DNA from: Candidatus Staskawiczbacteria bacterium RIFCSPLOWO2_01_FULL_38_12b
GTDB taxonomy: Bacteria; Patescibacteriota; Minisyncoccia; Minisyncoccales; Staskawiczbacteraceae
Direction: 5' to 3'
Length of the DNA: 51,471 nucleotides
Assembly: GCA_001820255.1 (NCBI GenBank)
Contig: MHPA01000016.1
Location: forward strand, 7,288-58,758
Shown: positions 11,271-50,398 of the stretch, one piece after another
How the letters are laid out: every line of letters begins with the position of its first letter
Position numbering within the stretch: position 1 is the first letter of the stretch
Position numbers and translations under genes: made by a program
Notes under the pieces: model-generated
Told to the model about the DNA's origin: nothing
The model's input: the letters and a program-made list of their open reading frames with translations, nothing else
The model's database searches: none

Positions 11271-11635
11271 TATTTTAAAATTTCTTTTACTGCCTTAATG
11301 ATATCTTCCGGGGTGCTCTGTATCTTTAAAAAATATTTAATTACTCCCAAGTGCGCAATATCATCAAGGTGTTCTTGTTTATCAAGATTTGAAACAATGA
11401 TTACTTTTAGATTTTTTAAACTTTGATCGCTTCGTATGGTTCTTAAGAGTTCCCACCCATCCATGTTGGGTAAAATAATATCTAACACCAATAAATCGGG
11501 GTAATTATTTTTTAATTTTTCCAAAGCCATTTTGCCATCTTTTGCGGTATCTATCAAAAAACCCTCCTTCCGAAACTGGTTGGCATAAATGTCTACAATA
11601 AATGGATCGTCTTCGACTAATAAAATCTTTTTCAT
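11270..11635 (-). CDS. Stand-alone response-regulator receiver (CheY-like)
   Basis: 121 aa. ILLVEDD acidic pocket, LLVLDIILPNMDG phospho-acceptor Asp, IIVSN and K residues. No output domain. Confidence 0.85.
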   Translation of the reverse strand: MKKILLVEDDPFIVDIYANQFRKEGFLIDTAKDGKMALEKLKNNYPDLLVLDIILPNMDGWELLRTIRSDQSLKNLKVIIVSNLDKQEHLDDIAHLGVIKYFLKIQSTPEDIIKAVKEILK

Positions 11636-11654
11636 AATTTCTTGTGAGAAATTT

Positions 11655-11735
11655 CCTACGAATTACGAATCTTTGCGAATTACGAATACGGTTTTCGTAT
11701 TATTCGTAATTCGCAAAGATTCGTAATTCGTAAGG
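11655..11735. repeat. Hairpin built from inverted TACGAAT heptamer units
   Basis: CCTACGAATTACGAATCTTTGCGAATTACGAATACG pairs with CGTATTATTCGTAATTCGCAAAGATTCGTAATTCGTAAGG (stem of about 36 bp with small bulges). It fills the REC-gene / pilB spacer. Confidence 0.9.
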
Positions 11736-11740
11736 GTTTT

Positions 11741-13462
11741 TTAGGTTTCTTGCGTAACCCTAATGACTTCATCAACGGTGGTTTGTCCGGACAACACGTT
11801 AATAATGCCTTCTTGAGCCATGGTTAACATTCCTTCTTTTTGGGCTTGTTTTAAAATTAAGGATTCTTCCGGATTTTTTAAAATAATATCAATGATTGCC
11901 GGAGATATTGATAACACCTCAAAAAGACCCATCCTCCCTTTGTAGCCTTTAAAATTACATGATTCACAACCCTTGATTTCGTAAATGGATAGCGAAGGCG
12001 AAACACTAATATCCTTTTTGGCAAATGCGGGCATATCCTTTAAAATTTCAAAAATATATTTTTTTACTTTTTCACTGGGAGTTACTTTCTTTTTACATCT
12101 TGAGCAAAGGGTCCTTATCAATCTTTGGGCGATTACCACCCTTAAGGTAGAAGGGATTAAAAAGGGACGCACCCCCATATCGATTAACCTTGGGATAACC
12201 CCCACGGCAGAATTAGTGTGGAGTGTGGACAATACAATGTGCCCGGTCAGGGCAGCGTTAATCACCAAGCCGGCAGTTTCTTCGTCCCTGACTTCTCCCA
12301 CCATAATAATATTGGGGTCTTGTCGTAAAATCTGCCGCAACCCCTCGGCAAAACTATAGCCGATATCGGCTTTAATCTGGGATTGATTAACCCCCGCAAT
12401 GGAATATTCAATAGGGTCTTCAATAGTAACCACATTCACCGTTTCCTGGTTTAAAATACGCATCAGGCCATAAAGGGTGGTGGTTTTTCCGGATCCGGTC
12501 GGACCCGAAGATAAAATCAACCCATAAGGCATTTTTAAAGCTTTTTTGATAATTTCAAGATTCCTTTCGGAAAATCCCATTTTATCAAAAGGTTTTAACC
12601 CTTCTTCAGGATCCAATACTCTGATTTCAACTTTTTCTCCATATAAAATAGGAAACGTAGCTACTCTAAAATCAATTTCTTTATTATTAATTTTAGCTGA
12701 AAACCTGCCATCTTGGGGTATTCTGTTTTCATCAATTTTGAGGTTGGACAAAATTTTAATGCGCGACACAATAGAAGGGTGTACGCTTAAAGGTAAAAAA
12801 AGGCTTAAATGCAAAACTCCATCCTGGCGAAACCGAATATTGAGCCTTTCACGATTGGGTTCAATATGGATATCAGACGCCCCCCCCTCAATGGCGTGGC
12901 GCAAAATAACCAGCACCATTTTTATAACCGGAGCTTCCTCGGTGATTTTTAACGTACTTTGATCTTGTTCTAATGAATCAGCACCCTCTTTGTTGTCCTC
13001 TTTTAATTCTTCTAATGCTTTTTTCGTTTCTATTTCTAGGGTCTTATACTGCTTTAGTATATTATTTAAATCGGAAAACGTAATGAGGTGAATTTCGTAG
13101 ACAAAATTCTCTTTTCGACTTAAAAACCTTAACGCATTCTGGCTGGCAATATCTTCCGGATACACCATTCCTATGCCAACGGTATTGCCTTTTTTAAATA
13201 ACGGAACCATCTTATAATTTAAGGCGGCAGCTCCGGATATTAACTCCAGCACCTCCTGGGGAACCTCTTTTTTTTCAAGCTTGATAAGGGGCACATTCAC
13301 AAACTTGCTTTTTAGTTCAAATAAAGCATTTTCAGAAATAATTTTATTTTCAAATATAATCTCCTCTTCCGTTTTACCGCGGCTTTTCATATCAGCAACG
13401 AGCTGATTCATTTTTTGATCGCTTATAATGCCATTGCCGTATAATTCTTGAATTAATTTCAT
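11741..13462 (-). CDS. pilB: Type IV pilus assembly ATPase (GspE/PilB family)
   Basis: 573 aa. N-terminal T2SE_N-like domain, Walker A SSGPTGSGKTTT, IMVGEVRD, STLHTN, and the tetra-Cys motif CSRC...CESC. Confidence 0.9.
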   Translation of the reverse strand: MKLIQELYGNGIISDQKMNQLVADMKSRGKTEEEIIFENKIISENALFELKSKFVNVPLIKLEKKEVPQEVLELISGAAALNYKMVPLFKKGNTVGIGMVYPEDIASQNALRFLSRKENFVYEIHLITFSDLNNILKQYKTLEIETKKALEELKEDNKEGADSLEQDQSTLKITEEAPVIKMVLVILRHAIEGGASDIHIEPNRERLNIRFRQDGVLHLSLFLPLSVHPSIVSRIKILSNLKIDENRIPQDGRFSAKINNKEIDFRVATFPILYGEKVEIRVLDPEEGLKPFDKMGFSERNLEIIKKALKMPYGLILSSGPTGSGKTTTLYGLMRILNQETVNVVTIEDPIEYSIAGVNQSQIKADIGYSFAEGLRQILRQDPNIIMVGEVRDEETAGLVINAALTGHIVLSTLHTNSAVGVIPRLIDMGVRPFLIPSTLRVVIAQRLIRTLCSRCKKKVTPSEKVKKYIFEILKDMPAFAKKDISVSPSLSIYEIKGCESCNFKGYKGRMGLFEVLSISPAIIDIILKNPEESLILKQAQKEGMLTMAQEGIINVLSGQTTVDEVIRVTQET

Positions 13463-13945: not shown

Positions 13946-14500
13946 TTAATACGTGTGGGTTTGTAATTCTAACACAAAATCATATATTTTTTGCTGGTTT
14001 TCTAAAGTGGCTACATCTTGGGAGGCGGAAGGCGACCTGAAAGAAATAGAGCTTAATTCAAATAATCGCACCGATTTATCTAATGAAGAAAGGAAATTTT
14101 TTAAACTCGCATAATTTCCCATTATATTGATTCTGAAAGTGACATTTCTAATTTTATGTTCAGCCGTAGGTGGAGAAATTTTTGAAAACGTTACTGACCT
14201 TACTATCAATCCATTTTCTTTTCCCTTTTTTTGAAAAAAGAACACCAATGGGGCAAGGGAAAAATCCGTAGGTAAGGCAGCATCAATATTTGCCAGGGAG
14301 TCTTGTTTGCTTTCTATTATAGCAACGAGATTTGCTATGTTTGAAAAATAAAGAGCCTTGCTATTATATTCTGCCTCTTTCTTATATAAGCTATTTTGCA
14401 CATCGCCAACTTCTTGGTATTTGGGAATTACAAAAAGAAATACCAATATTGATGTGATAAAAATAATGATGACCGTAGAAGTTAATTTATTTATTTCCAT
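13946..14500 (-). CDS. PilO-like pilus alignment protein
   Basis: 184 aa. N-terminal TM, a coiled-coil segment, then ALPTDFSLAPLVFFFQKKGKENGLIVRSVTF. The position after the pilN-like gene fits pilMNO order. Confidence 0.55.
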   Translation of the reverse strand: MEINKLTSTVIIIFITSILVFLFVIPKYQEVGDVQNSLYKKEAEYNSKALYFSNIANLVAIIESKQDSLANIDAALPTDFSLAPLVFFFQKKGKENGLIVRSVTFSKISPPTAEHKIRNVTFRINIMGNYASLKNFLSSLDKSVRLFELSSISFRSPSASQDVATLENQQKIYDFVLELQTHTY

Positions 14501-15298: not shown

Positions 15299-16366
15299 CT
15301 ACTTCTCCAGTCCTCCCAAGGCCACCCCTGTCGCCGCTGAAAACCTGGGAGCCATTATCTTAAGGGTTTGGTCAAGAATCGGGGGGTATAAAAATTCTGA
15401 AAAACAATTTGGAACGTATACTTCTTTTTTAAGGCTTTCGGCAAAATACTCTTTTAATCCCGGCAGATTGGCCGTGCCTCCTGTCAAAAAAATTTCGTCA
15501 ATTTGCTTTTGCCCTCCGTGCAAAAACTCAGCACAAACGCCTTTTATTTCAATTAAGAGGGGAGACAATAAAAGATATAAGGTTTTAACTACGTCGCTTC
15601 TTGGATGCAAAAGTCCTTCTTTATTTTTTATGTTTTCTGCTTGATCCAAAGCTACCCCCAATCCAGAAGAAACCACATTTGATAATTGGCTGCTGTTAAA
15701 GGTGAAACTGTAGCTCTTTTTTAAAAAACCTTTTTCAATAATGTTTATGGTTGAACTCTGAACTCCGATATCCACCAAGCAGACTATTTTTTTATTATTT
15801 CTTATCAACGCCCTGGTAATACCCAGCGCTTCGGCTTCCAGGGCGTATAACTGGAGACCGGCCATTTTTGCCATGGCCTGATACTCTTGGATCACTTGAT
15901 TTGGCACCGCCAGTAAAAATACTCCAAATGAAGAATTTTTACTACCGGGTGAATTTGGCATTATCTTCCAATCCAAGGTAACCTCCGAAATGGGCAGGGT
16001 GATGTATTGAGATGCATTATAACGGATGGCTTCCGGAATTTCTTTTTCCGTCATAAAAGGAATATCAAACGAAGTGCAAAATGTGGAAAAATCAGGTATG
16101 GAAAAAATGGCTTCTTTTGTTTTTATTTTTGCCTCCTCTAAAATTCCCCGTATGGCCTCTGAAGTAACATTATTTGAAAGCAAGTAACTGCCCTTTTGGG
16201 TATTTGACAAGGATTCCTTGTAAAGATATTCTGATTTTATCTCGCCGTAATTTTCCAATGTTTTGCCTTCCCCCCAGCGGGAAATTTCCACCACCTTAAC
16301 AGAGGAAGTGCCAATATCCACCCCGATCATTTTTTTAGGGAAAAACATTTTAAAGGGATTAAACAT
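15299..16366 (-). CDS. pilM: Type IV pilus assembly protein PilM (actin-like ATPase fold)
   Basis: 355 aa. IGVDIGTSSVKVVEI phosphate-1 motif, VCLVDIGVQSSTINI, and IFLTGGTANLPGL. Confidence 0.85.
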   Translation of the reverse strand: MFNPFKMFFPKKMIGVDIGTSSVKVVEISRWGEGKTLENYGEIKSEYLYKESLSNTQKGSYLLSNNVTSEAIRGILEEAKIKTKEAIFSIPDFSTFCTSFDIPFMTEKEIPEAIRYNASQYITLPISEVTLDWKIMPNSPGSKNSSFGVFLLAVPNQVIQEYQAMAKMAGLQLYALEAEALGITRALIRNNKKIVCLVDIGVQSSTINIIEKGFLKKSYSFTFNSSQLSNVVSSGLGVALDQAENIKNKEGLLHPRSDVVKTLYLLLSPLLIEIKGVCAEFLHGGQKQIDEIFLTGGTANLPGLKEYFAESLKKEVYVPNCFSEFLYPPILDQTLKIMAPRFSAATGVALGGLEK

Positions 16367-28303: not shown

Positions 28304-31036
28304 ATGGAGCTTACCATTACAAAACGAGACGGTACCAAAGAATTATTCAATGCGGACAAGATAAATCGCTCTATTGAGCGCGCCGCCTTTGGCATGATAG
28401 ACCCCATCGCCAAAGTTACCCAGGTTGCCACCGATACCAAAGTTACACTCTATAACGGAATCACCAGTGAAGAGTTAGACCAAGCCACCATCAATGCGGC
28501 CGTACAAAACATAAAAGAAAACCCCGACTACGACAAAATTGCCACCCGATTGCTGTTAAAAACGGTTTATAAACACGTCTTGGGAGATTTTAGCGACAGC
28601 CAGGAGCAATTAAAAAAAATACACCAGGAATATTTTCCAAGCTACATTAAAAAGGGCGTGCAAGACGGAATTTTAGACCCACAGATGGAAAAAAACTTTG
28701 ATCTGGAACGCCTGGCAAATTTTTTGGATATTTTAAGAGATGAATTATTTATTTACTCAGGATTAGACGGATTGCTTCACCGCTATTCGGTAAAAGATAA
28801 AAATCAAAAACCGTTTGAAACCCCGCAATATTTTTTTATGAGAGTCGCCATGGGCCTTTCCTACAACGAAAAGGATCCAAACGAATGGGCGATAAAATTT
28901 TATGAAAAAATGTCCCAACATGAATATATCGCCGGCGGATCCACCAATATTTATTCCGGAACGGCCACTCCCTCCCTTTCCAACTGTTTTTTACTGGAAA
29001 TCCACGACGATATGTCGCATATCTCAAAATCAGTTGCCGATGTCATGTTGCTTTCAAAAGCTTCCGGAGGCATCGGCGCTTCCATTACCAAGCTAAGGGC
29101 TACCGGCTCGCCTTTATCTTCCAATAATACCACTTCGTCAGGGCCCACGCCTTTTGCAAAAATCATTGATACGGCAATCAGAGCCATTCAAAGAGGCGGA
29201 AAGAAAAAAGGCGCCCTGTGTTTTTATATGGAAAACTGGCACATTGATTTTCCTGATTTTGTCAACTGGAAGCAAAGCGCAGGCGACGATTACTTAAGAA
29301 TGAGGACTGCAGACACTGCGGTTTTTATTTCTGATGAATTCATGAAACGGGTGGAATCCAAAGCCGACTGGTATATGTTTGACCCCAAAGAAACCGCCGA
29401 TTTAAATGAACTGTACGGGATAGCATTTTCAAAAAGATACAACGAATATATAAAAATGGCCGAAGAAGGAAAATTACGAATGTGGAAAAAAGTTCCCGCC
29501 ACCGAACAATATCGACAAATTTTGGTGAGCCTGCAAACTACCTCGCACCCCTGGCTTACCTTTAAAGATTCTATTAATTTACGGGCGTTAAATAACAATA
29601 CTGGCACGATTCATATGTCAAATTTGTGCACGGAAATTTGCCTGCCCCAAGACAAAGACAATATTGCGGTATGCAACCTGGCTTCAATAAATATTGCTGC
29701 GCACTTAAAGAAAAAACAAATTGACTGGCAAAAATTAGAAGAATCAGCCAGGCTGGCGGTGCGCCAACTGGACAATTTAATAGATATCAATAAACTGCCC
29801 ATACCGGAAGCAAGGCGATCAGATAGTGAAAACCGGGCCATTGGCCTTGGGGTCATGGGTTTTTCCGACGCCATAGAGCAATTGGGAATTCCCTACGATA
29901 GCCCTCACGCTTATGATTTTACCGATAAAATTTTTGAATTCATCAGCCACATGGCCATTGACGAAAGCGCAAATTTGGCGCAAGAGCGCGGAAGTTACAA
30001 AAATTTTGCGGGATCAGGCTGGTCAAAGGGAATGGTTCCCGTTGACACTATGGAAATCCTAGAAAAAGAACGGGGAAGCGCCATTGACGTTGATAAAAAA
30101 TCAAAGCAAAATTGGCTGGATTGGGAAACTCTGCGAGGCAAAGTAAAAAAAGGCATAAGAAACGCCACCTTGATGGCAGTAGCTCCCAATGCTAATATCG
30201 GCTTGGTAGCCGGAACTACTCCAGGAATTGACCCGCGCTTTGCGCAAGTTTTTTCACGCAATAAAATTTCCGGAAAGTATTTGGACATCAACCACAACTT
30301 AGTTACCGAGTTAAAAAATATGAACCTATGGGATATGGTAAAAGACAAAATTATTGAATTGCAAGGGGATGTTTCTTCCATAGAAGAAATTCCGGCCCAT
30401 ATCCGGGACATTTACAAGACTTCGTTTTCTGTTTCGCCCTACGCCTTTATAGAGGTTGCCGCAAGAGCCCAAAAATGGGTTGACCAGGCCTTGAGCCGAA
30501 ATATGTATTTGGATGACCGAGATATCGACAAAACCATGGATATTTATTTTACCGGCTGGAAAAAGGGATTAAAGTCAACCTATTATTTACATATGAAGCC
30601 ACGCCACAGCGCCGAGCAAAGCACGGTGGCGGTCAACAAATCGGCCAAATTAGGTAAAATGGGATTTGCGGCGGCATTTAAAACCAAGGAAGAAGTCATT
30701 ATTACAGAAAACATTGAAGTAAAAATTATGGAAACTGCGGTTTTGCAAGACCCCGACCAAAGCGACGACCCTATCCAGGAAGAGGAAGTGATAGAAAATA
30801 AAGCGGCAGAAAGAATTATTGAAGCCGTGCCCGAAAAAGAGCCTTTTAACGTTGTCCAAAACAAGCCCGTTTCACATCAAATTTTCTCAAAGGTACAAAC
30901 ACAGCTTCCCAATCCGCAACAACTTCCCGCACAACAACCCGAACACTTCCAAACAAAGATAATTGATGGTAGGTTATATAAAATCCACATGCCATCGGAT
31001 CCGCAGGAAAACTTCACCTGCGACGGATGCCAATAG
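28304..31036 (+). CDS. nrdA: Class I ribonucleoside-diphosphate reductase alpha subunit with ATP-cone and a long low-complexity C-terminal tail
   Basis: ATP-cone (ITKRDGTKELFNADKI), catalytic motifs SNCFL, NLCTEI and LMAVAPN, and a C-terminal CDGC redox pair. About 130 extra residues rich in E/Q/P precede the tail. Confidence 0.95.
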   Translation: MELTITKRDGTKELFNADKINRSIERAAFGMIDPIAKVTQVATDTKVTLYNGITSEELDQATINAAVQNIKENPDYDKIATRLLLKTVYKHVLGDFSDSQEQLKKIHQEYFPSYIKKGVQDGILDPQMEKNFDLERLANFLDILRDELFIYSGLDGLLHRYSVKDKNQKPFETPQYFFMRVAMGLSYNEKDPNEWAIKFYEKMSQHEYIAGGSTNIYSGTATPSLSNCFLLEIHDDMSHISKSVADVMLLSKASGGIGASITKLRATGSPLSSNNTTSSGPTPFAKIIDTAIRAIQRGGKKKGALCFYMENWHIDFPDFVNWKQSAGDDYLRMRTADTAVFISDEFMKRVESKADWYMFDPKETADLNELYGIAFSKRYNEYIKMAEEGKLRMWKKVPATEQYRQILVSLQTTSHPWLTFKDSINLRALNNNTGTIHMSNLCTEICLPQDKDNIAVCNLASINIAAHLKKKQIDWQKLEESARLAVRQLDNLIDINKLPIPEARRSDSENRAIGLGVMGFSDAIEQLGIPYDSPHAYDFTDKIFEFISHMAIDESANLAQERGSYKNFAGSGWSKGMVPVDTMEILEKERGSAIDVDKKSKQNWLDWETLRGKVKKGIRNATLMAVAPNANIGLVAGTTPGIDPRFAQVFSRNKISGKYLDINHNLVTELKNMNLWDMVKDKIIELQGDVSSIEEIPAHIRDIYKTSFSVSPYAFIEVAARAQKWVDQALSRNMYLDDRDIDKTMDIYFTGWKKGLKSTYYLHMKPRHSAEQSTVAVNKSAKLGKMGFAAAFKTKEEVIITENIEVKIMETAVLQDPDQSDDPIQEEEVIENKAAERIIEAVPEKEPFNVVQNKPVSHQIFSKVQTQLPNPQQLPAQQPEHFQTKIIDGRLYKIHMPSDPQENFTCDGCQ

Positions 31037-31185
31037 GATGAAATTCCAAATTCAAATCACCAAATCCCAAATAAATTCTAATTTTTAAATTACTAAAATC
31101 TGAAGTGTTCGTCATTGCCGCAAAAACCGCAAGTTTGCGGCACAATCCAGTTTGACTTTCGTAGTAAAAAACACTACATTTAACC

Positions 31186-31366
31186 CATGGACATCACATC
31201 CAGAAACCGCACTTAAGTCGCCGGCGGTCTGGCAATATTGGGCGGCTTGGAGCAAAAAGTTTGCGAGGCGTAGCCGTAGCTACAGCTCGCACACTTTTTG
31301 TGAAAACTGCCCAAGACTGACAAATCCGGCAAGACTTGGAGTGCGGTTTCTGGATGTGATGTCCAT
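31186..31366. repeat. Long hairpin F (arms CATGGACATCACATCCAGAAACCGCACT / AGTGCGGTTTCTGGATGTGATGTCCAT)
   Basis: 27-28-nt perfect inverted repeat. The apex CAAAAAGTTTGCGAGGCGTAGCCGTAGCTACAGCTCGCACACTTTTTG carries the same GCGTAGC...GCTAC apical motif as D and E. Confidence 0.9.
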
Positions 31367-31550
31367 ATGCCAAAATTAACTCAACAAGTTACTAAAAAAG
31401 ACATCCAAGTAAAAATATCATATTCAGACAACAGAGTAATGGGGGGTTTAGAAAAAATGGAGTTTAATGTATGTAAAAAAATTGATGCGCTTATTTTAAA
31501 ATGCGAAAATTTCTTAAAAAGGCTCTCTATAAAATATAGAGATTAACACT

Positions 31551-31838
31551 ATGAAAAATAAAAAAATCACTATTGATGATTTAGCGTTGATGATGAAGAA
31601 GGGCTTTGATGGGGTTGACCGAAAGCTTGATATTCAGGATGAAAAAATATCGGAAATAAAAACAGAAATCAGGGCGCTTGATTTGAAATTCAGCCAGAAA
31701 ATGAATGAACTCACCACTACACTTGATAGATTTTTAAAAAGAATGACCGATATGGAAGATGAGTTTGCTATGATGAAAAACGATCTTAATAGAATGAAAA
31801 AAGTAATAAGGGAAAAATTAGGCGTAGATTTAACGTAA
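31551..31838 (+). CDS. Small coiled-coil protein (paralog of 50123-50398)
   Basis: 95 aa. KKITIDDLALMMKKGFDGVDRKLD...LDRFLKRMTDMEDEF has the same N-terminal KKIT motif and heptad-like pattern as the 91-aa ORF at 50123-50398. Confidence 0.45.
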   Translation: MKNKKITIDDLALMMKKGFDGVDRKLDIQDEKISEIKTEIRALDLKFSQKMNELTTTLDRFLKRMTDMEDEFAMMKNDLNRMKKVIREKLGVDLT

Positions 31839-31847
31839 AGAATTTTT

Positions 31848-31940
31848 AATCCATAACCCACCGAATCCGCAGGAAAACTTCACGCTTGCCCCGTAGTGAA
31901 ATTGCAGTTTCTACTACTGGGGTGCGACGGATGTCAGTGA
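31848..31940 (+). pseudogene. Relic copy of the nrdA 3' end, disrupted by a 38-nt hairpin
   Basis: 31848-31883 matches 30982-31017 at 31 of 36 nt. 31923-31940 (TGCGACGGATGTCAGTGA) encodes CDGCQ-stop, like 31019-31036, but with synonymous differences. A 38-nt insert lies at 31885-31922. Confidence 0.75.
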
Positions 31941-31991
31941 TAAGTAATTGCAAATGCAAAAATCAAATTGTAAAATTACAATTAAAAATTT

Positions 31992-32522
31992 ATGTCAAAT
32001 AAAAAAGAAATAGTTGGTTTCATTAAAGAACAAATAAAACAGAATACTCCAAAATCTCAAATTGAAAATGAATTATCTTCAAAATATGAACGAAAAGAAT
32101 ACGAAAAAATCCTAAAAGATTTTCCCGAACCTTCGCTAAAAGAAAAATACAAGCTACTTAATAATACTCTTATTGCTTGTGTTAGTATTATGACATTGTT
32201 TAAGCTGCTAACAATCGTAGAAATTGGTTCAGAATTTGGAGTAATAGCAGTACTAATATTTCTTGTTATTGGATTACTGATACCGATATATTTGGTAATC
32301 TATTTATTACAGTATCGCAGAGGTGCCTATATTATTACTATTGCATTAACAGTGCTATCCTTGCGTAATTTTTTTGACGGGGTTGATGAAATATTTACAT
32401 CAGGCAATTGGCTATACATCGGAATATTTTTCTTTGGATTAATTTTAGTTATACTTTTAATCTTAATACCTGCGATTCTTTTGAAAAAGCTTTGGCCAAA
32501 ACAATTAGTAAAAAGTTTATAA
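31992..32522 (+). CDS. Hypothetical membrane protein (4 predicted TM segments)
   Basis: 176 aa. A charged N-terminal 60 aa is followed by four hydrophobic stretches. Confidence 0.5.
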   Translation: MSNKKEIVGFIKEQIKQNTPKSQIENELSSKYERKEYEKILKDFPEPSLKEKYKLLNNTLIACVSIMTLFKLLTIVEIGSEFGVIAVLIFLVIGLLIPIYLVIYLLQYRRGAYIITIALTVLSLRNFFDGVDEIFTSGNWLYIGIFFFGLILVILLILIPAILLKKLWPKQLVKSL

Positions 32523-32605
32523 AAAAGTTGTATCGCTATTGAGAGGTAAAAGCACGAAACAACTTACTTCAGTACTGAATAGTTTTATTACCATTAATAA
32601 ATAAT

Positions 32606-33598
32606 ATGATTTTAGGAAAAGCATCACCAGAAGATATGAATCTTCACCCCATGCGCTACCAGTGGGCTTACGATCTTTATAATCAGGCCGTCAGAAACAC
32701 TTGGTTTCCCCACGAAATCGCCTTAAAAGAAGACCTGGAAGATTGGAACAAAATGACCGAGGACGAACGCCATGCGGTAAAGTTTACCATGGCTTTTTTC
32801 AATCCTGCTGAATTAATTGTAAACCGCGTACTGGCGCTGGGAGTATATCCTTATCTTAAATCTCCCGAATGCCACTTGTATTTGGCAAAACAAATGTGGG
32901 AAGAGGCAAACCACTGCGTGGCTTTTGAATATGTACTGGAAACATTCCCCTTTGACCGCGAAAAAATATTTCAAGTGCATTTGGAAACTCCTTCCATGCA
33001 AGCCAAAGAAAGCTACGTGATGAAATATTTAAAAAGGATGACCGAAGAAAAACTGGATATTGAAACCACCGAAGGCAAAAAGGATTTTATCCGCAATATG
33101 GTGGCCTATAATATTGTCATGGAAGGCATTTGGTTTTACAGTGGCTTTATGGTGGCTTTGTCGTTTCGACAAAGAAACCAACTGCGCAATTTCGGATCCA
33201 TGATTGACTGGGTGTTGCGCGACGAATCATTGCACTTAAAATTTGGCATACAATTAATCCAAACCGTGCTGGAAGAAAACAGTGAATTATTAACCGAAGA
33301 ATTCGCCAACGAAATAAAATCCATTATTGTGGAAGGCGTAAACATTGAAAATGCCTATAATAAAGATTTATTCCCCAATGGAATTTTAGGGTTAAATGCG
33401 GATTACGTAAACCAATATGTCCAATATGTAGCAGATCGAAGATTACTGGAACTTGGCCTGCCAAAACAATACAACGTAACTAATCCGGCAAAATGGATGT
33501 CAACGGCTACCGATGTACTGGAACTGGTAAACTTCTTTGAAGCGCAAAACACCAAGTATGAGGTGGACTCGGGCCATACACAAAAGCCAAAAGCGTAA
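32606..33598 (+). CDS. nrdB: Class I ribonucleoside-diphosphate reductase beta subunit
   Basis: Di-iron and radical motifs: EEANHCVAFEYV, VMEGIWFYSGF, RDESLHLKF. Confidence 0.95.
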   Translation: MILGKASPEDMNLHPMRYQWAYDLYNQAVRNTWFPHEIALKEDLEDWNKMTEDERHAVKFTMAFFNPAELIVNRVLALGVYPYLKSPECHLYLAKQMWEEANHCVAFEYVLETFPFDREKIFQVHLETPSMQAKESYVMKYLKRMTEEKLDIETTEGKKDFIRNMVAYNIVMEGIWFYSGFMVALSFRQRNQLRNFGSMIDWVLRDESLHLKFGIQLIQTVLEENSELLTEEFANEIKSIIVEGVNIENAYNKDLFPNGILGLNADYVNQYVQYVADRRLLELGLPKQYNVTNPAKWMSTATDVLELVNFFEAQNTKYEVDSGHTQKPKA

Positions 33599-50122: not shown

Positions 50123-50398
50123 TTACTTTTTTGGCACATTTAGCATATTTTCAATGTAGTCCATCCGCATTGGCAATTTTTCTTCATGGTAAGTGTCAAT
50201 AAAACCATTAACTTTTTCTTTCACTTCCTTTAAATCTTTTTCAACTTTATCTAACCTGTTTTCAACTTTATCAAATCTTTCATCTACTTTGTAAAATTTC
50301 CCGTCAACATGTTCTTGAGCCGTTTGAAAACTGCCGCGTATCATCTCCGCCAATTCATTAATAGTAGTTATTTTTTTATTATCTTTTCTTGGGTCCAT
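50123..50398 (-). CDS. Small coiled-coil protein (paralog of 31551-31838)
   Basis: 91 aa: NKKITTINELAEMIRGSFQTAQEHVDGKFYKVDERFDKVENRLDKVEKDLKEVKEKV. Confidence 0.45.
   Translation of the reverse strand: MDPRKDNKKITTINELAEMIRGSFQTAQEHVDGKFYKVDERFDKVENRLDKVEKDLKEVKEKVNGFIDTYHEEKLPMRMDYIENMLNVPKK

Follow-up and report, generated by a model that had tools for sequence, protein, structure and literature searches.

In a 51,471-nt stretch of the genome of Candidatus Staskawiczbacteria bacterium RIFCSPLOWO2_01_FULL_38_12b (contig MHPA01000016.1, positions 7,288 to 58,758, forward strand; hereafter the window), the last 57 nt of nrdA, the gene for the class I ribonucleotide reductase large subunit, occur a second time downstream of the intact gene, ahead of nrdB. 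With a probability of roughly 0.68, this distal copy is the scar of a recombinational insertion of cargo genes at the nrdA/nrdB junction, a hotspot used across this genus of very small bacteria from groundwater. What separates the two copies is inserted DNA; in relatives, the junction holds varying cargo, the extra gene ends share their boundaries between species, the sequences are mosaic, and dispersed repeats were inserted afterwards.

The genome of the window (G000, 836 kb) was compared with 25 genomes of the same genus and with G030, a member of the same family. Two metagenome contigs, L039 and L059, were also included, the latter being a 2-kb Logan contig of a close relative with an nrdA body 93.3% identical to that of G000. 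Extra nrdA 3' ends are designated tail', extra nrdB 5' pieces head', and the inserted genes of the window orf59, cc95 and mem176. Cargo gene families were sought in Pfam, PHROGs, PADLOC and NCBIfam.

The sequence of the locus was matched without any difference by Logan contigs of four runs over positions 30500–31216 and 31340–32647, and contigs from public reads at least 96% alike (eight runs) displayed the window's structure only. Apparent joints at 85% likeness were ruled out as same-species variants, as they belong to other species with short spacers.

The duplicated nrdA end

The features of the locus are as follows, in window coordinates.

28304–31036, plus strand: nrdA, class I ribonucleotide reductase large subunit, 910 aa, intact, with a CDGCQ tail (open reading frame list; orthologues in 25 same-genus genomes)
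30980–31036, plus strand: functional 57-nt nrdA end, KIHMPSDPQENFTCDGCQ-stop, the segment duplicated downstream
31037–31105, no strand assigned: dispersed AT-rich intergenic repeat, AAATTCCAAATTCAAATCACCAAATCCC..., with at least six other genome copies at 85–92%
31117–31141, plus strand: GC-rich hairpin GCCGCAAA...TTTGCGGC 3' of nrdA, a possible terminator read from the sequence
31150–31186, plus strand: cassette promoter module GTTTGACTTT-N-TACATTTAACCC (TTGACT-17-TACATT), with the promoter-like site at 31152–31180
31187–31366, no strand assigned: 180-nt perfect long hairpin (hairpin F), a dispersed palindromic repeat between promoter and orf59
31367–31546, plus strand: orf59, first cassette gene (90% nucleotide identity to L059, 62% amino-acid identity to G007)
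31551–31838, plus strand: cc95, 95-aa coiled-coil protein, second cassette gene (68 homologues)
31848–31884, plus strand: tail' part 1, decayed nrdA-end copy IHNPPNPQENFT (31/36 to 30982–31017; orthologous copy in L059 85%)
31885–31922, no strand assigned: 38-nt palindromic repeat inside tail' (hairpin fold −17.7 kcal/mol, z −3.7)
31923–31940, plus strand: tail' part 2, CDGCQ-stop, matching 31019–31036
31992–32522, plus strand: mem176, 176-aa membrane protein gene, further variable cargo (open reading frame list)
32606–33598, plus strand: nrdB, 330 aa, intact (genus orthologues 90–97% identical)

The nrdA gene is 70–79% identical to its orthologues in the genus, and its C-terminus reads ...YKIHMPSDPQENFTCDGCQ-TAG. 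A repeat search matched positions 30982–31017 with 31848–31883 at 31 of 36 nucleotides (86%), at an offset of 866 bases downstream, and recovered 31019–31036 and 31923–31940 as the continuation of the copy. The distal copy reads (L)IHNPPNPQENFT, followed by 38 nt (31885–31922) and then CDGCQ-TGA, in frame and in order relative to the nrdA end. Both the repeat and its continuation beyond the 38-nt hairpin had been described in a first-pass annotation of the window, with which repeat search and folding agreed.

Aligned in register, the 57-nt copies are identical at 45 of 57 positions (79%). Seven of the 12 differences fall within the first 19 nt and produce four residue changes (K>L, M>N, S>P and D>N), and the remaining five are synonymous or lie within the stop codon. 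The earlier description of a preserved peptide with synonymous divergence is therefore correct for the 3' two thirds of the copy but not for its first 19 nt.

The 57-mer was found at exactly two places in the genome, with an E-value of about 1e-4 for the shared 19- to 36-mer. In the whole-genome comparison, the duplicate was linked to the insertion and specific to nrdA, and not a widespread repeat, in support of the first-pass annotation. Similarity past the stop codons lies outside the duplication, because 31037–31105 is a dispersed repeat, with a metagenome contig depth 15-fold above that of its flanks.

The gap between nrdA and nrdB in the window amounts to 1569 nt. Its content was as first described: a long hairpin, a 95-aa gene and a 176-aa membrane-protein gene in approximately 1.5 kb, without integrase or transposase. 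Neither these nor other mobile-element domains were detected in orf59, cc95 or mem176, and none of the three had a threshold match in the four family databases, where only sub-threshold coiled-coil noise was obtained.

The nrdA/nrdB junction in relatives

Empty junctions were observed in other species, with spacers of 21 nt in G008, 44 nt in G009 and 25 nt in G030, which bears out the earlier claim of an insertion between the two copies. In about 20 other genomes, the spacer holds 0.1–4.6 kb of cargo, including HicB/HicA, YafQ/YoeB-like (RelE-like) toxins, an NTP_transf_2 nucleotidyltransferase, NYN and DUF6290, and L039 carries MNT+HepT at this position. The cargo of the relatives consists mostly of bona fide addiction-type genes.

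Beyond the window, extra nrdA ends stand at this junction in the genomes G014, G015, G016 and G025, on the metagenome contig L059 and, as a degenerate copy, in G007. All of these ends begin within 2 nt of AAAATCCACATGCC and all finish at the stop codon, and the cargo that they adjoin is unrelated among G014, G015/G016, G025 and G000/G007/L059.

Extra nrdB 5' pieces, extending from codon 1 to approximately codons 9–19, were found in G007 (three), G015, G016, G019 and L039. Each is directly followed by a promoter module homologous to 31150–31186, whatever the cargo. Reading from nrdA to nrdB, G007, G015 and G016 have head', promoter, cargo and tail' in this sequence. Such an inside-out order means that the entire compact junction was duplicated around the cargo in a single event; two separate one-sided events are excluded, because those would place tail' to the left of head'. 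The nrdA tree is star-like with scattered scars and speaks neither for nor against a single origin.

The orf59–cc95 cassette, which the first-pass annotation had proposed to seek elsewhere, was located at the junction in G007 and L059, and cc95 is present without orf59 in L039. In L059, the arrangement is nrdA, promoter, orf59 (90%), cc95 (84%) and tail' with the 38-nt hairpin (85%). No 180-nt hairpin separates promoter and orf59 in L059, so this repeat entered the G000 lineage later. Because the 38-nt hairpin occupies the same position of tail' in L059, it was in place before the two lineages diverged. The gene behind tail' is another one in L059, so mem176 is variable cargo as well.

The promoter module of the window is 95% identical to that of L059, where the orf59 ATG adjoins it directly; by this comparison, the window module would originally have abutted the orf59 ATG too. 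It is also 85–87% identical to the modules 3' of the nrdB head fragments in G007 and L039, which stand ahead of other cargo. Among 26 genomes, the exact promoter pattern occurred once in G000 and once in G019, and the module was therefore rejected as a dispersed cassette end.

The extra nrdA ends differ in their relation to the functional end of the same genome. In G014, the two match at 55 of 57 positions. The match in G025 is 50/57, with the first 32 nt identical and seven synonymous differences in the following 25 nt (clustering P = 0.002), and in G016 the first 17–20 nt are identical and the remainder has diverged. Functional nrdA ends across species agree at a mean of 41/57. The tail' of G000 matches its own end at 45/57 and the next best at 43 (nearest neighbour among 25 species), values that give no clear polarity for the two copies; members of the genus are only 74–79% identical in nrdA, with synonymous sites near saturation. 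Gene conversion would also explain why a perfect NrdA tail can still be read from several tail' copies. In G000 and G007, tail' is decaying, and a palindromic repeat has landed in both, 6–8 nt apart.

The functional end also differs abruptly between close relatives. Between G000 and L059, its first 14 nt are 100% identical, its last 43 nt are 72% identical (31/43), and the spacer to the promoter cannot be aligned (Fisher p = 6e-5). Identity of 93% in the nrdA body against 72% in the end means that, in one of the lineages, another sequence took the place of the functional nrdA end and of the spacer behind it. The last 43 nt of the G000 functional end match L039, G018 and G013 at 37/43 and the tail' of G000 at 36/43, and those of L059 match G022 at 37/43 and others at no more than 34. 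On these matches, L059 is most likely the replaced lineage, and the working nrdA end of G000 would be ancestral, not an import.

Origin of the downstream copy

The favoured reading starts from nrdA and nrdB lying 21–44 nt apart with nothing between them. A small cassette with its own promoter would enter this junction, namely orf59 and cc95 here and a bona fide toxin-antitoxin or similar addiction-type pair in relatives. Duplication of the target, 57 nt at the 3' end of nrdA and 30–57 nt at the 5' end of nrdB, would yield nrdA(intact), nrdB head', promoter, cargo, nrdA tail' and nrdB(intact). Such a pattern would correspond to an "insertion with long target duplication" and would not need an element-encoded recombinase. 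The likely agent is homologous recombination by the host RecA (single-crossover or ends-in) on taken-up DNA, which would be a circle or an "ends-in" linear piece carrying junction sequence. ComEC and RecA are encoded in the genome.

Afterwards, the structure would be inherited or would spread via recombination in the conserved gene ends, with the non-functional copies either held similar by gene conversion or decaying. Cargo turned over, and the working nrdA end was replaced in at least one close lineage. In the window, head' would have been lost; tail' has its four amino-acid changes and was split by the 38-nt palindromic repeat, and the 180-nt hairpin repeat landed later between the cassette promoter and orf59. 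The two cassette genes are probably toxin-antitoxin-like: they are co-directional and 4 nt apart, and their slot, behind a conserved promoter module, is held by HicAB, RelE-like and other pairs in relatives.

Several observations weigh against this reading. The start of tail' is identical beside four unrelated cargos, which random duplication does not explain; either the cargo must have been replaced after common descent, or the site must be preferred. The duplication stops exactly at the stop codon even in G014 (55/57), which mechanical duplication by a staggered cut does not predict. The window has no head' copy, and a remnant of the nrdB head sought in 31037–31149 was not found; moreover, neither orf59 nor cc95 matched a known family of toxins or antitoxins in the four databases. 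The ancestral call on the G000 end is based on 37 versus 31–34 matches out of 43. Among contigs at least 96% alike (eight runs), no same-species genome without the cassette was found, and the insertion event itself was unseen.

In the first-pass annotation, the distal copy was taken to be the displaced original gene end, and the working CxxC tail of NrdA to have come from the insert, by analogy with integrative elements. Under such an account, the incoming DNA would comprise a stretch homologous to nrdA as anchor, an nrdA end and stop codon of its own, and the cargo; it would have recombined homologously on the left and joined illegitimately 57 nt before the resident stop codon. Homology-facilitated illegitimate recombination and C-terminal displacement at Rhs/CdiA loci are analogues of this route. 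It correctly predicts that both repeat edges are sharp and that the right edge is the stop codon, and it agrees with the exchange of the last 43 nt and the following spacer as a unit between G000 and L059. It is also in line with G016, where the functional end (DPAEKNM) is atypical and tail' (DPQEKFL) genus-typical. Replacement of gene ends thus does occur at this locus, but it is not favoured for the working end of the window. The polarity assumed for the two copies is not supported; the functional end of the window is as close to the next relatives L039, G018 and G013 (37/43) as the gene body is, and L059 is the outlier. In G014 and G025, the extra copies are near-copies carrying the lineage-specific codons of their own functional ends, which fits in-place duplication or gene conversion rather than a foreign surrogate end. 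The duplicated nrdB 5' ends across the cargo in relatives and the order head', cargo, tail' are unexplained by such an import, and independent illegitimate joins would not strike the same base in six genomes. As for the analogy with integrative elements, the insert encodes no recombinase, and the repeats are not an identical attachment-site (att) core, since 12 of 57 positions differ and one copy is split. An imported end is consequently regarded as doubtful.

The identical start of tail' beside unrelated cargo in several species would also be produced by a trans-encoded site-specific enzyme, such as a Xer-type recombinase, a homing endonuclease or a nickase, that targets the nrdA end and perhaps the nrdB start and lets cassettes enter at a fixed position; in T4-like phages, the nrdA/nrdB junction is a known target of an endonuclease (mobE). 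However, no recombinase or nuclease gene was found in or beside the approximately 25 junction loci examined, and no HNH, GIY-YIG or LAGLIDADG domain in any cargo open reading frame examined. The single tyrosine recombinase of the genome (one PF00589 match) lies on contig C19, which is not the contig of the window. Other duplicated targets in the genome (lepA end, dnaJ head, hairpins; described below) are unrelated in sequence, and the shared boundary at dnaJ comes with shared flanks, which denotes common descent. Such an enzyme is very unlikely. Chance similarity, a dispersed repeat or an assembly artefact through the repeated hairpin could be suspected in an AT-rich region with many small repeats, where Logan contigs break inside the multi-copy 180-nt hairpin. 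These were excluded for practical purposes by the two-place 57-mer, its frame and order, its presence at this junction in six further genomes or contigs, and the single contigs of L059 and G007, which carry nrdA, promoter, orf59, cc95 and tail' without a hairpin at the promoter–orf59 site. A group I intron or intein and a prophage were rejected, as their defining genes or sites are lacking, an integron is unlikely on the same grounds, and a tandem duplication was rejected since the cargo is single-copy.

A more speculative and improbable version of the insertion reading takes the unit nrdB head', promoter, cargo and nrdA tail' as a recombinase-free selfish cassette, with inside-out copies of the ends of two neighbouring, highly conserved essential genes as homology arms, which RecA would insert after natural transformation. 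If this were true, each insertion would regenerate the duplication and leave both host genes intact, and addiction cargo would move between related species. The same logic would extend to dnaJ, lepA and atpG, and the cassette would supply the missing mechanism of insertion with long target duplication.

That pattern was described for restriction-modification systems (Nobusato et al. 2000, Gene 259:99; Furuta, Abe & Kobayashi 2010, NAR 38:2428, PMC2853133). The restriction-modification cases concern cargo of the addiction type, have direct repeats of 46–423 bp and no mobility genes, come mostly from naturally competent species, and are of unknown mechanism (PMC2853133). Their repeats, longer than 30 bp, align with a single-copy target in a related genome and can overlap a gene 3' end (PMC2853133). 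Similarly, the present insert is absent from relatives (other species: G008, G009 and G030) with which the flanks align, its 57-nt direct repeat exceeds 30 bp (45/57) and corresponds to a single-copy target, and it contains no integrase or transposase. In contrast, its cargo is orf59/cc95, and toxin-antitoxin-type in relatives, instead of restriction-modification. The target spans two essential gene ends, and the repeats stop at start and stop codons. Several species, moreover, share the structure: its cargo turns over, as many as three head copies stand in an array, the promoter module is a common one, and the copies undergo gene conversion.

Other systems resemble the locus in part. At Rhs/CdiA loci, new DNA recombines into a conserved gene end and the former end is left downstream, and repeated events build arrays; the ends displaced there code for differing toxin tips accompanied by cognate immunity genes, and a swap alters function. 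Downstream fragments of a former-type gene end and arrays are common to both, but all extra copies here encode the ordinary NrdA tail and the cargo consists of separate genes. Integrase-driven islands at the 3' ends of tRNA or protein genes, with attP restoration, also leave the host gene intact and its end duplicated on the far side. In the present case, however, no integrase was found between 31037 and 32605 or in the gaps of approximately 25 relatives, the repeats are 79–96% identical and form no identical core, the 5' end of the neighbouring gene is duplicated too, and the inserts are only 0.5–1 kb.

In T4-like phages, a free-standing homing endonuclease (mobE) is inserted between nrdA and nrdB, and in fungal mitochondrial atp6, mobile endonuclease reading frames bring a substitute gene end and leave the original behind. 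The former shares the nrdA/nrdB junction with the present case and the latter its outcome; in contrast to both, the loci examined here contain no endonuclease gene, and their cargo is toxin-antitoxin-like. Compared with integron cassettes, the shared part is a 5' promoter module and not a 3' attC, although no search with an attC model was aimed at the locus. Like type II toxin-antitoxin systems, orf59 and cc95 are short neighbouring genes that run in the same direction, have a promoter of their own and sit in a variable slot; unlike them, they have no recognizable domain at threshold, and cc95 of L039 lacks orf59.

The movement of toxin-antitoxin and addiction modules without transposases is poorly understood. 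The genus displays one locus in many states, namely empty, with a single cassette, with arrays (up to three heads), with fresh-looking or decayed scars, and with a functional gene end swapped between two close relatives. Together with the parallels at dnaJ, lepA and atpG, this makes the mechanism approachable by comparative genomics and transformation. For annotation, short extra pieces of essential genes in spacers of the Candidate Phyla Radiation would be insertion scars, not second-copy pseudogenes or assembly errors.

Cassette genes, hairpin repeats and similar duplications elsewhere

In every copy of the promoter module (window, G015, G019, G007 and L039), the cassette start codon lies approximately 7 nt past the −10 hexamer, a spacing that suggests leaderless cassette mRNAs. 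The window module contains an inverted repeat, GTAGT...ACTAC, between −35 and −10, which may be an operator. At the GC-rich hairpin at 31117–31141, a simple terminator scan made no call.

All 68 homologues of cc95 are hypothetical proteins of Patescibacteria, in which the family is widespread. It occurs at the nrdA/nrdB junction in G007, L039 and L059 and at other loci in other genomes; homologues of orf59 (L059, G007) always lie just upstream of it. A 91-aa paralogue of cc95 is encoded at 50123–50398 of the window (minus strand), and the two share the N-terminus KKIT(I/T)(D/N)(D/E)LAxM. In G016 (L033, G016:C8, 3825–4106), a cc95 homologue (53% identical) lies directly downstream of nrdB, so this cargo family uses both sides of nrdB. 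In G015 (L035, G015:C3, 4864–4926), a second copy of the nrdB 3' end (INFFEQQNTKYEVDSGHTKKP) lies 2.2 kb downstream of nrdB, and a third gene end in the operon therefore also serves as a landing site.

The 180-nt hairpin has a 27-nt perfect outer stem and a folding energy of −113 kcal/mol (z −11.9). At least eight copies are present in the genome, with compensatory differences in the stems; among them are C18:8765–8945, C18:15215–15395, C18:4256–4393, C21:3911–4056, C1:20294–20431 and C5:21052–21124. The members, of about 180 nt and near-perfect, follow the pattern AT(G/A)GACATCAC...GTGATGTC(C/T)AT, in which the stem sequence varies and complementarity is kept. This family is very abundant in groundwater metagenomes, at depths of 1000–2000 versus 20 in the flanks, and one copy splits the nrdA tail' of G007.

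For the 38-nt palindromic repeat, at least six other copies with variable loops were found (C1:4927–4963, C30:24989–25025, C32:19207–19240, C25:6012, C3:496 and C10:25172). The conserved stem is CCCCGTAGTGAAA...TTTCTACTAC(T/C)GGGG, and one copy lies between two tRNA-Pro genes. An Rfam search of the whole window at the gathering threshold returned only tRNAs, and a permissive scan of 31000–32000 matched neither hairpin.

Similar duplications were observed at other genes of the genome. The first 38 codons of dnaJ are duplicated approximately 1 kb upstream of the gene, before a promoter and small genes (C29:10547–10674 and 11625–11752), as a repeat of 128 nt (94%) around a two-gene insert. In G025, the corresponding dnaJ head' (G025:C7:3466–3579, L058) has the same codon 1–38 boundary and a homologous promoter piece, with HicBA added. 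The common boundary and the homologous flanking piece indicate shared descent, not repeated targeting. In each of the two genomes, head' is nevertheless closest to its own dnaJ, which indicates concerted evolution by gene conversion.

At lepA, the final 34 nt through the stop codon recur at 97% identity 1 kb downstream (C28:14842–14875 and 15886–15919, minus strand), with a Zeta-toxin gene (PF06414, E = 5e-35), a 59-aa open reading frame and a terminator hairpin between the copies. Between atpA and atpG, a direct repeat of approximately 140 nt with an atpG-head-like piece (C21:13283–13419 and 14270–14412) brackets a 67-aa open reading frame and a NYN-domain gene of the same family as the nrdA/nrdB cargo of G025. 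Genome-wide, unique repeat pairs were direct in nine cases versus inverted in two, numbers that are too small to be more than suggestive.

Three paralogues with a PaaX central Cas2-like domain (PF20803, E = 6e-18), 176–184 aa long, are encoded at C25:4113–4643, C10:36011–36544 and C24:28389–28943. A directly repeated palindrome of 30–45 nt, different at every locus, stands on both sides of each gene, as if the gene had been inserted into a terminator hairpin that was then duplicated.

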